From the NCBI RefSeq assembly GCF_054482595.1, contig NZ_CM137008.1: a DNA stretch of 64,000 nt. One strand, given 5' to 3'. Positions 37,535 through 39,385 of this stretch are shown piece by piece. The stretch's first letter is position 1, and each line of letters starts with the position of its first letter. Below the pieces are notes generated by a model. The model saw only the letters and a program-made list of their open reading frames with translations. It searched no databases and had not been told where the DNA came from. The position numbers were made by a program, and so were the translations under genes.

Positions 37535-39385
37535 ATGGCAACAATAATCCCAACAATCAGTAGCTGCAACGATAAAATTACTGCCGGAGAGAAAAGGCTG
37601 GCAAGAATTCTGGAAAGAGGACTAGGCGAAGAGTGCTGCTGTTGGTATGACATTCCCACGGGTGATAAGCATCTTCACCCAGATTTTATGATACTTTCGC
37701 CAGAAAAAGGCATTATTTTTCTCGAGGTAAAAGATTGGTTTATTACAAAAATAAAAAAAGCCAACAAGTCTAATGTTTTGTATGAGACACAAAATGGCAT
37801 TCAATCTTTAAAGAATCCGATAGAACAAGTTAGGCGATATGCTTTCGAAGCTGTAAACCAGTTAAAAAAAGACCCCCTATTGTGCCAACAGGAAGATCGT
37901 TACAATGGCAATCTTCTTTTCCCCTATGGATATGGCGTCTACTTTAGTAATATTACACGAGAAGCATTAAATAATAAATTTACTCAAGAAGAGCTGCTCG
38001 GGATCTTCCCATCAGATCTTATCATCTGCAAAGACGAACTAAATGAATTCATGTCAAAAGGGGATGTTTCATCCAAAATACATTCGTTGATTAAATATGA
38101 CTTCAAATGTCATGCTACACAAGAACAGTTGAACAGGATTAGATGGCACTTATACCCCGATGTCAGAATAGAAAGGGAAAAGAGAAGTAAAAACTGTGAT
38201 GAATTTAGTGTCGATGCACCAACCATCATTTCTATCCTGGATACTCAACAGGAACAACTTGCCAGAAGTATGAGAGACGGCCACCGAATAATTCATGGTG
38301 TTGCAGGTTCAGGTAAGACATTGATCCTCTATCATCGCTGTCAGGAATTAGCGAAAAAAAATGACAGCGAAAAGCCAATACTTGTCATTTGCTACAATAT
38401 TACTTTAGCCAAAAAACTTCGGTCGATGTTCATCAATCATCCCTTTGAAGAGAAAATAAAGGTTAATAATTTTCATGCTTGGTGTTTCCAACAAATTAAA
38501 AAAAACAAGATCACCATTCCAGAAGGGGATAATATTTTTGAAAATATGGAGCAAGCGTTGACTGATGGTTTCAACACAGGAAAAATAAAACCAGAACAAT
38601 ACAGCGCTGTATTAATTGATGAAGGACATGATTTTAAGCCCGAATGGTTAAAAATCCTGGCAAAAATGACTGACTCTCAGGACGAGAATTTGCTATTTCT
38701 TTATGATGATGCTCAGTCAATTTATCAAAAAAAGAAAGCATTAGACTTTACACTGTCCAGCGTGGATATTAAAGCGACAGGACGCACAACTATTCTTAAT
38801 ATAAATTATAGAAACACACAACAAATTCTACACTTTGCCAGTTGCATTGCATTTAATTATCTTAATAGCCATATCGATAGTTCTTTAACCTATCATAAAC
38901 CTGCTGCGGGAGGAATGAATGGCGATTATCCCAAGCTTGAACATTTCGACACACAGGACGAAGAAATAGCAAGAGCAGTCAAATGGATTACAGAGCAAAA
39001 TGAACAAGGGATTCCGTGGTCTGAAATTGCTATACTTAGTCCTTCAACTCACATCCTTTCTAACTCTCTAAGTTCTGTACTTGAATCGAAAAATATCCCC
39101 TTTAATCTTATTGTAAGCTCTGCAGATAAAAAGTCCTGGACGCCAGAACAAGAGCGTATTTCTGTTATGCCATTACCCAGCAGCAAAGGACTTGAGTTTC
39201 ACTCAGTTGTCATTATTGATGCAGCGAGAACACGGGATAATAGTGATGATTTGAGTGAGGATATAAAGAGACTCTATGTAGGTTTTACCCGAGCACGTTG
39301 CAATCTCTTGGTAACCTTGCACGGTGAAGGTGCGTTAAATGAGCATCTACTAAGAACCTATAAGCAAAGCCCACAATATATGTAA
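37535..39385 (+). CDS. NERD-domain nuclease fused to UvrD-like SF1 helicase (candidate single-gene defense protein)
   Basis: 616-aa ORF. N-terminal NERD segment (AGEKRLARILERGL...HPDFMILSPEKGIIFLEVKDW); helicase motif I GVAGSGKT, motif II VLIDEGHDF, motifs V/VI LPSSKGLEFHSVVII and LYVGFTRARCNLLV; AT-rich gene next to yjiA. Confidence 0.75.
   Translation: MATIIPTISSCNDKITAGEKRLARILERGLGEECCCWYDIPTGDKHLHPDFMILSPEKGIIFLEVKDWFITKIKKANKSNVLYETQNGIQSLKNPIEQVRRYAFEAVNQLKKDPLLCQQEDRYNGNLLFPYGYGVYFSNITREALNNKFTQEELLGIFPSDLIICKDELNEFMSKGDVSSKIHSLIKYDFKCHATQEQLNRIRWHLYPDVRIEREKRSKNCDEFSVDAPTIISILDTQQEQLARSMRDGHRIIHGVAGSGKTLILYHRCQELAKKNDSEKPILVICYNITLAKKLRSMFINHPFEEKIKVNNFHAWCFQQIKKNKITIPEGDNIFENMEQALTDGFNTGKIKPEQYSAVLIDEGHDFKPEWLKILAKMTDSQDENLLFLYDDAQSIYQKKKALDFTLSSVDIKATGRTTILNINYRNTQQILHFASCIAFNYLNSHIDSSLTYHKPAAGGMNGDYPKLEHFDTQDEEIARAVKWITEQNEQGIPWSEIAILSPSTHILSNSLSSVLESKNIPFNLIVSSADKKSWTPEQERISVMPLPSSKGLEFHSVVIIDAARTRDNSDDLSEDIKRLYVGFTRARCNLLVTLHGEGALNEHLLRTYKQSPQYM

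Follow-up and report, generated by a model that had tools for sequence, protein, structure and literature searches.

A NERD nuclease fused to a UvrD-type helicase in Escherichia coli's immigration control region: a candidate single-gene defence system

The immigration control region of Escherichia coli, also listed as hotspot #36, extends from yjiA to yjiN and classically houses hsdRMS, mrr, mcrBC and gmrSD (PMC12707154). Here, we describe a nuclease-helicase gene that occupies this region in a 64,000-nucleotide stretch of an E. coli chromosome (NCBI RefSeq assembly GCF_054482595.1, contig NZ_CM137008.1), which we refer to as the window and whose first letter is position 1. A check of open reading frames (ORFs) on the window places the gene at 37535..39385 on the + strand, where it starts with ATG and encodes 616 amino acids; the RefSeq label for the protein (WP_021557503) is ‘3'-5' exonuclease’. 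A preliminary description, made from the letters of the DNA, had read it as a NERD nuclease domain fused to a UvrD-like superfamily 1 (SF1) helicase and had proposed it as a candidate single-gene anti-phage system. Both the ORF and all motifs quoted in that description are recovered, as the translation contains DFMILSPEKGIIFLEVKDW, GVAGSGKT, VLIDEGHDF, SKGLEFHSVVII and YVGFTRARCNLLV. The gene order in the surroundings is tsr, btsT, yjiX, yjiA, the NERD-helicase gene, a stump of hsdR, symR/symE, a GmrSD-type gene, yjiS, yjiR and an Rpn-family gene. The gene thus does lie in a defence hotspot, between yjiA and the hsdR stump, symE/symR and the GmrSD-type gene, and the AT-richness ascribed to it is equally evident, with a GC content of 0.36-0.37 in the gene region versus 0.52-0.57 in the flanks. 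Its parts are the following:

37535..39385 (+), NERD-UvrD nuclease-helicase ORF, 616 amino acids, characterized by an AlphaFold2 model, conservation and dN/dS
37535..38182 (+), N-terminal nuclease domain, residues 1-216
37583-37864 (+), NERD Pfam match within the N-terminal nuclease domain, residues 17-110
37682-37684, 37724-37726 and 37730-37732 (+), PD-ExK catalytic residues D50, E64 and K66
38183..38209 (+), flexible interdomain linker, residues 217-225, the sole segment with a predicted local distance difference test score (pLDDT) <50
38228..39334 (+), minimal UvrD-type SF1 helicase core, residues 232-600
38297-38320 (+), Walker A motif, residues 255-262
38505-38600 and 39110-39135, sites of the reduced 1B and the absent 2B subdomain, residues ~324-357 and 526-533
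38618-38623 (+), Walker B residues D362/E363
Residues Q394, R426 and G552, helicase motifs III, IV and V
39287-39292 (+), motif VI residues T585/R586

The Pfam scan that the preliminary description had asked for returns NERD (PF08378) at residues 17-110 (E 3.8e-8, model positions 4-95 of 111), AAA_19 at residues 238-398 (E 1.9e-9) and UvrD_C at residues 421-526 and 537-596, next to a match of UvrD_C_2 at residues 549-592. In a family alignment of 81 homologues with 27-56% identity, at least 90% of the members share the nuclease residues D50, E64 and K66, and the same holds for G18/E19 and Q98; the motor residues G255/G258/G260/K261 of Walker A, D362/E363 of Walker B, Q394, R426, G552 and T585/R586 show no or almost no variation. 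Given this conservation of catalytic and motor residues, the Pfam matches are not due to chance. When scanned member by member, 79 of the 81 homologues match UvrD_C, 76 match NERD (E<=0.001) and 75 match AAA_19. The protein thus combines a restriction-endonuclease-like fold, on which the catalytic D...(D/E)xK residues of NERD domains are present and conserved, with a helicase in which the UvrD/Rep/PcrA-like SF1 motifs I-VI are all found, so that Pfam, conservation and fold comparison agree on the architecture that had been proposed, NERD followed by a UvrD-like SF1 core.

The AlphaFold2 model of the 616-residue protein has a pLDDT of 92.7 and a predicted template modelling score (pTM) of 0.91. 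In structure comparisons, its N-terminal domain shows a PD-(D/E)xK fold like that of Can2, Upx, SduA and McrC, and its motor is nearest to Rep, UvrD, PcrA and HelD, with the best fold matches to Rep, AdnAB, HelD and UvrD. Among solved structures searched by sequence, only fragments of UvrD, PcrA, Rep and HelD match. In the fold search, superposition with solved chains never extends beyond ~350 of the 616 residues, and a full-length structural precedent is therefore absent.

The motor does not have the four subdomains 1A/1B/2A/2B, but a minimal 1A/2A core. In the alignment to PcrA, 33 residues stand in place of PcrA 103-218 (1B) and 7 in place of PcrA 381-550 (2B); likewise, the Pfam match skips UvrD_C model positions 101-282. 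The helicase is thus a naturally minimal SF1 core without 2B and without most of 1B. In Rep, removal of 2B activates the monomeric helicase, and by analogy the 2B-less motor described here may be intrinsically active and regulated instead by the N-terminal part of the protein. The gene itself is under purifying selection, with a ratio of non-synonymous to synonymous substitution rates (dN/dS) of 0.19 between two E. coli alleles that differ at 18 synonymous and 14 non-synonymous sites.

Whether the family already has a name had been left as a question, and it is in fact catalogued in PADLOC as C3a187, ‘NERD+UvrD’. This and the following statements on the protein's PADLOC matches rest on the best 25 of 39. 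The C3a187 model (PDLC01087), whose reference gene is Dole_0738, matches over the full length (E 4.7e-141, 469 bits, residues 1-597 versus model positions 1-545 of 559) and represents the same family with the same NERD and UvrD architecture. It was defined in 2018 by Shah et al. as cluster 187 of candidate accessory genes of type III CRISPR systems, on 3 occurrences (PMC6546367). While C3a187 is thus defined by adjacency to type III cas genes, the NERD-UvrD gene in the window has no cas neighbour: no cas gene lies within +/-20 kb in an annotated identical locus, and 78 loci of the family, described below, have no recurrent neighbour. The distant RTasNERD-Hel model (UG34) also matches over the full length (E 7.8e-23, residues 1-594 versus model positions 1-510 of 519) and shares the layout of an N-terminal NERD domain and a C-terminal helicase. 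In UG34, the NERD-helicase accompanies a reverse transcriptase (RT) in 7 of 17 loci (Mestre et al. 2022, PMC9226505), whereas no RT lies beside the NERD-UvrD gene. Among the PADLOC matches listed, the only others are RTasHel, an unnamed Helicase model, GajB, AbiO and Nhi. In NCBIfam, nothing comes near its cut-off (the best score is 57 bits versus a cut-off of 965, with weak matches to UvrD, PcrA, HelD and Rep), and PHROGs returns generic DNA helicases only.

The preliminary description had likened the protein to Nhi-like systems. Nhi (SERP2475 of Staphylococcus epidermidis, Bari et al.) has 606 residues, with an N-terminal PD-(D/E)xK nuclease of ~230 residues that is followed by an SF1 helicase (10.1101/776245). 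The two proteins are single chains of near-equal size (606 versus 616 residues, the nuclease spanning residues 1-216 here), and both are patchily distributed, sometimes plasmid-borne and often found near defence genes. This is a resemblance in layout, not whole-protein homology, as the Nhi helicase is of the DUF2075/PF09848 type and Dda-like, whereas the one described here is of the UvrD type (AAA_19, UvrD_C). As a stand-in for Nhi-like proteins we used a natural protein of nuclease and PF09848 architecture, which matches PF09848 over the whole domain with E 3.3e-86; the NERD-UvrD protein matches it at residues 252-401 only, with E 2.2e-4. Likewise, the PADLOC Nhi model matches with E 4.6e-9 in the P-loop region only (residues 235-435 versus positions 183-338 of 470).

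Nhi-like proteins also combine an N-terminal nuclease with an SF1 helicase in one chain, and a review lists NERD (PF08378) for them (PMC10952713). However, they are defined by DUF2075/PF09848 (Millman et al. 2022, 10.1101/2022.05.11.491447), and only 21 of the 81 family members reach E<=0.001 on PF09848, versus 79 of 81 on UvrD_C. The nuclease part of the Nhi-like definition is therefore found in our protein and the DUF2075 part is not, and we do not retain the assignment. NERD-UvrD resembles Nhi in layout but is a different family, built on a UvrD-type core, and the shared layout is likely to be the product of convergence or domain shuffling.

Further systems were compared and set aside. Hna, the other likeness that had been suggested, is an SF2 helicase fused to a nuclease, and was rejected for its SF2 motor; the Hna nuclease is C-terminal. 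Gabija comes closer on the motor side, as GajB is a UvrD-like SF1 helicase and several PADLOC models of it match the motor at E 1e-21 to 1e-14, although these matches are partial (~residues 350-530). GajB pairs with the separate OLD/TOPRIM nuclease GajA, whereas the NERD nuclease is fused here, and membership in Gabija was rejected because there is no GajA-like neighbour in the annotated locus or in the 78 loci. An AddA/RecB-type enzyme was rejected because its domains would stand in the opposite order, the gene has no partner subunits (AddB, or RecC and RecD) and the NCBIfam recB/addA scores are far below cut-off. Compared with the Schlafens (SLFN11 and SLFN14 of group III, and SLFN12), identity is 8-16%, each of the two domains matches on its own, and no single superposition takes in more than 340 of 616 residues; bacterial PD-(D/E)xK nucleases score nearly as well, so that the Schlafen likeness is a resemblance only.

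The gene resides on an AT-rich cassette of ~2.35 kb that displaced a type I hsd operon, and whose limits follow from an upstream spacer and from hsdR homology. Its flanking elements are:

37212..37534 (+), AT-rich cassette-specific upstream spacer, presumed promoter and 5' untranslated region, only in gene carriers
37232..37273 (+), hairpin and T-rich run just past the yjiA stop codon, likely the yjiA terminator (fold -17.8 kcal/mol, z = -4.9), followed by AUUAUUUUAUUUUCUUU
39403-39416/39423-39436, hairpin with a perfect stem of 14 bp and a loop of 6 nt (z = -4.9), 17 nt past the stop codon
39437..39560, right-hand end of the cassette
39627..39824 (+), C-terminal stump of hsdR, 65 codons (PADLOC REase_I positions 967-1027 of 1029, E 2.4e-22)

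On the right-hand side, homology to the 3' end of the full-length hsdR of other E. coli starts at ~39561, and in cassette-free genomes the gene that aligns to query positions 176-605 is annotated as ‘type I restriction endonuclease subunit R’. Together with the 65-codon stump, which RefSeq annotates as a partial gene without N-terminus, this homology indicates that the cassette replaced hsdM, hsdS and most of hsdR; the stump is context and lies outside the NERD-helicase system.

On the left-hand side, the 323-bp spacer is restricted to gene-carrying genomes (101 records, 100 of them at >=80% coverage). The preliminary description had credited the gene with a promoter-like region of its own, which a consensus scan does not bear out: it finds 6 sites versus 7.9 expected by chance, and a consensus-based promoter was rejected since the hexamers are no commoner than chance. 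Independent transcription of the NERD-helicase gene is nevertheless likely, given the yjiA hairpin with its T-run, a terminator that would likely insulate the gene, and the spacer that travels with it in all carriers. Between two E. coli allele groups, the spacer is ~88% identical and has an 11-bp indel, compared with ~98% identity in the ORF; it may either evolve faster than the ORF or have been exchanged separately.

Downstream, a 10-bp perfect hairpin had been reported. The hairpin exists, but its perfect stem measures 14 bp. As the + strand has no T-run, it is not a canonical intrinsic terminator for the NERD-helicase gene; the - strand has a weak T-run. The hairpin is kept in both E. coli alleles and absent at the orthologous loci of other genera, and it may be a terminator or an RNA-stability element. 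A repetitive extragenic palindromic (REP)-like repeat was rejected, as the hairpin occurs once in the window and in the E. coli alleles only.

Among 5,426 complete E. coli genomes, 100 (1.8%) carry the gene, always as one chromosomal copy with 97.8-100% identity. In strain EC28 (NZ_CP049101.1), it is the sole intact nuclease-helicase candidate in the region, which further contains an hsdR stump, symE and an Rpn-family gene. Homologues with 57-64% identity are found in the same yjiA-to-yjiN hotspot in Salmonella, where the gene adjoins BrnTA and an hsdS gene, as well as in Leclercia and Klebsiella aerogenes. Relative to the E. coli gene, their dN is 0.27-0.36 and their dS is saturated, and they are old or fast-evolving alleles of the hotspot cassette. 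The NERD-helicase is not among the contents given in the review of the immigration control region (PMC12707154), and a paper on E. coli hotspots does not mention it (PMC10121019).

The family as a whole is far broader. Among the candidates scored, 7,030 database proteins reach E<=1e-10. Of the representatives of 50%-identity clusters, 505 reach E<=1e-30, and nearly all the best ones have ~600 residues and align end to end. A genome scan yielded the 78 loci mentioned above, from Gamma-, Beta-, Alpha- and Deltaproteobacteria, Cyanobacteria, Bacillota, Verrucomicrobia, Chloroflexi, Rokubacteria, Acidobacteria and one archaeon, a Methanoregula. Settings of homologues outside the yjiA-to-yjiN hotspot include the edge of a P2-like prophage, an island with an integrase and insertion sequences (IS), and an smpB island with a PLD-helicase and methyltransferase as well as a type III restriction-modification (R-M) system. 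Plasmids carry the gene as well: full-length homologues are present in 141 records, among which are conjugative plasmids of the IncF type in E. coli and of the MOBF type in Vibrio.

When the 875 ORFs that flank the gene in the 78 loci are clustered, no neighbour family is present in more than 8 loci. The commonest one, found in 8, consists of GGDEF proteins that come from syntenic Bradyrhizobium genomes and lie at a median distance of 2.3 kb, for which reason a two-gene system was rejected. As no partner recurs in the 78 loci and none is shared among ten other contexts that we inspected, the proposed single-gene status holds, and the gene would work alone. Defence genes are frequent in its vicinity: 6 loci have a methyl-directed restriction enzyme of type IV, 4 have PDC-S02, 3 an HNH protein and 2 a nuclease-DUF2075 protein. 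In a set of 20 diverse loci, 7 of the 40 nearest ORFs, distributed over 6 loci, have PADLOC matches, namely QatD, AriB, Avs4-like, mREase_IV (a type IV restriction enzyme), HNH, SoFic and PDC-S41/Nhi-type.

The two cases with a nuclease-DUF2075 protein form an observation of their own. In a Bryobacterales metagenome-assembled genome and in Onishia taeanensis (our loci L081 and L034), a protein with a nuclease and a full DUF2075/PF09848 domain is encoded 200-250 bp upstream of the NERD-UvrD gene, so that two analogous nuclease-helicase genes stand side by side:

L081:4932-6845 (+) and L034:4365-6755 (-), nuclease-DUF2075 protein, with the PF09848 match given above and weak PADLOC matches to PDC-S41, Nhi and AbiO

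The nuclease core of these nuclease-PF09848 proteins aligns with that of the NERD-UvrD family only weakly (hhalign E 0.0024).

On balance, we lean towards reading the NERD-UvrD gene as a self-contained defence gene against mobile genetic elements, i.e. phages and possibly plasmids, that was acquired as a ~2.35-kb cassette in replacement of a type I R-M operon. Its previous reading as a candidate single-gene defence system was reasonable, and is better grounded now. It builds directly on the domain architecture, the conserved catalytic residues, purifying selection, the stand-alone organization, the hotspot location and the frequent defence neighbours. The anti-phage function is inferred from context, and the wider defence function, the substrate, the helicase polarity, autoinhibition and the trigger are inferences as well.

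For the mechanism, Nhi provides by analogy the best model to work with. It requires nuclease as well as helicase, and the nuclease is autoinhibited in the full-length protein; Nhi limits the accumulation of phage DNA and is escaped through the phage single-stranded DNA-binding protein (10.1101/776245). A PsNhi-like protein cuts the DNA of T7, SECphi17 and SPO1, but not that of E. coli (10.1101/2025.07.10.664194), and escape from Nhi-like has been traced to a phage DNA methylase that is lost (10.1101/2022.08.27.505566). On this model, the compact, 2B-less UvrD-type motor would load on invading or replicating foreign DNA at stretches of single-stranded DNA (ssDNA), at 3' tails or at forks, translocate with ATP and present the DNA to the covalently attached NERD PD-(D/E)xK nuclease, which would nick or cleave it and thereby stop replication of the invader. 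At rest, the nuclease would probably be restrained by the helicase part, as in Nhi, until a suitable substrate is engaged. As there is no methyltransferase partner, self and non-self would probably be told apart by DNA structure, ends or modification, and not by a cognate methylation mark.

Several points weigh against the reading as a defence gene. Some loci have housekeeping neighbours only, and the count of defence neighbours has no matched control and relies on crude ORF calls in high-GC loci, some of which are probably spurious; we therefore take these neighbours as supportive, not as a measured enrichment. The gene is also not a typical prophage-borne defence gene, since the phage genome collection contains no full-length homologue. 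The three full-length copies in IMG/VR all lie at contig edges, and prophage cargo was accordingly rejected as an explanation. In the full-text literature, from which most subscription journals are excluded, we found no experimental tests of C3a187/NERD-UvrD. Finally, NERD domains can cut RNA, as in ZwsA (10.64898/2026.04.06.716636), which makes the DNA substrate of NERD-UvrD an assumption.

A different possibility, in keeping with the RNA endonuclease activity of the ZwsA NERD domain (10.64898/2026.04.06.716636), is that the protein is an abortive-infection effector: a cue from the phage, be it one of its proteins or damage to DNA, for example, would free the nuclease, which would then degrade host and phage nucleic acid, possibly RNA, so that the cell dies or arrests. 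Suicidal back-up roles have been proposed on comparative-genomic grounds for NERD in PglW and DndF (PMC12839542, PMC10853773), several PD-(D/E)xK nuclease-NTPase systems cleave any DNA in vitro (10.1101/2025.07.10.664194), one Nhi homologue is toxic on induction, and neither a methyltransferase nor another self-marking gene recurs as a partner in the 78 loci. However, the gene is stably carried in 100 E. coli genomes without an antitoxin-like neighbour, and its nearest precedents in layout act on phage DNA, with Nhi limiting its accumulation and the PsNhi-like protein sparing E. coli DNA. We consider an abortive mode improbable, even though the sequence does not separate it from selective restriction. 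We give still less credence to an accessory role in DNA repair, recombination or transcription, i.e. to a helicase-nuclease of the AddA/RecB or HelD-like kind that lies in a variable region by chance. The motor does find its best fold matches in Rep, AdnAB, HelD and UvrD, its weak NCBIfam matches are to UvrD, PcrA, HelD and Rep, RefSeq names the protein an exonuclease, and some loci offer nothing but housekeeping neighbours. Yet its best NCBIfam score falls far short of the cut-off (57 versus 965 bits), and a patchy gene (1.8% of E. coli genomes) that is AT-rich, behaves like a cassette which four genera carry in their restriction hotspot at a dN of 0.27-0.36 between them, occurs on plasmids and is often adjacent to defence genes has the profile of an accessory immune gene, not of a repair gene.

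A role in the competition between mobile elements, for instance in the exclusion of conjugative ssDNA or of rival plasmids rather than phages, overlaps with the defence reading more than it opposes it. UvrD-type motors load on ssDNA, and the DNA that enters by conjugation would be a natural substrate for them. The occurrence of full-length homologues in 141 plasmid records, conjugative IncF and MOBF plasmids among them, and almost none on phages fits such a role; but the family is mostly chromosomal, and neighbours such as AriB, QatD, SoFic and the type IV restriction enzyme are components of anti-phage systems, which leaves competition as the main role rather unlikely, below repair in our estimate. 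Lowest of all we rank the view that the gene is an orphaned part of a multi-gene system, inactive alone in E. coli. It would account for the two best PADLOC matches, as the C3a187 model was derived from genes beside type III cas cassettes and the second-best match is the RT-associated NERD-helicase of UG34. But the CRISPR link was drawn from 3 occurrences (PMC6546367) and the UG34 link from 7 of 17 members (PMC9226505), the annotated strain has neither a cas nor an RT gene within 20 kb, none recurs in the 78 loci, and the ORF is intact and under purifying selection in 100 genomes.

If the defence reading is extended, NERD-UvrD could represent a large stand-alone immune family, in which a 2B-less motor and a NERD nuclease tell foreign DNA apart without a methyltransferase, and a fourth kind of interchangeable ‘restriction’ cassette in enterobacteria, next to type I R-M, Mrr/McrBC and GmrSD in the immigration control region. 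The cue might be, e.g., ssDNA or 3' ends as found in phage replication intermediates or during conjugative entry. We offer this extension as speculation that is unlikely to hold in full, though with somewhat more confidence than any of the rival explanations above. Bolder still would be the view of NERD-UvrD and nuclease-DUF2075 proteins as bacterial architectural counterparts of Schlafen-11-type nuclease-helicases.

The family is already catalogued bioinformatically and its architecture will not surprise the specialist, but the gene is widespread, compact and located in the best-known restriction locus of E. coli. Given its label as ‘3'-5' exonuclease’ or CRISPR accessory, defence censuses are unlikely to count it as a separate system. 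Should it prove protective, it would add a compact, easily cloned single-gene system of 1.85 kb to the E. coli defence repertoire and explain the occupant of the hsd/mrr/mcr locus in ~2% of E. coli and in relatives from Salmonella, Leclercia and Klebsiella aerogenes. Furthermore, a naturally 2B-less motor tethered to a nuclease would be a clean model for the coupling of sensing and cleavage in Nhi, Gabija and Hachiman, and for how self-damage is avoided without a modification partner. Should it not prove protective, it would caution that hotspot location and nuclease-helicase layout are insufficient.

Several observations concern the surroundings of the cassette. Immediately beside it lie an intact SymE toxin gene at 40039-40380 (+) and its antisense SymR RNA at 39968-40044 (-; Rfam RF01809, 91.7 bits). 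They are followed at 40427-42520 (-) by an intact GmrSD-type (DUF262/DUF1524) type IV restriction gene of 697 residues, with PADLOC matches to Orf5 (2e-223) and HEC-06 (1.5e-67). In strain XH990, which is 100% identical over window positions 37200-39600, the GmrSD-type gene is split into a shorter coding sequence and a pseudogene, and in strain EC28 it is absent. At 44612-45556 (-), the same variable region contains a gene for an Rpn-family recombination-promoting nuclease/putative transposase (TIGR01784, 171 bits versus a cut-off of 52). In E. coli THO-010 (NZ_AP022540.1, 4247269-4250446), an IS1B element is inserted in the segment that matches window positions 37200-39600 and splits the match in two. 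Lastly, an ORF of 129 residues at 33006-33395 (+), between tsr and btsT, lies in an AT-rich patch at 32500-33999 and has no NCBIfam or PADLOC match; in XH990, its place is taken by a pseudogene for a ‘hypothetical protein’ that carries an internal stop.

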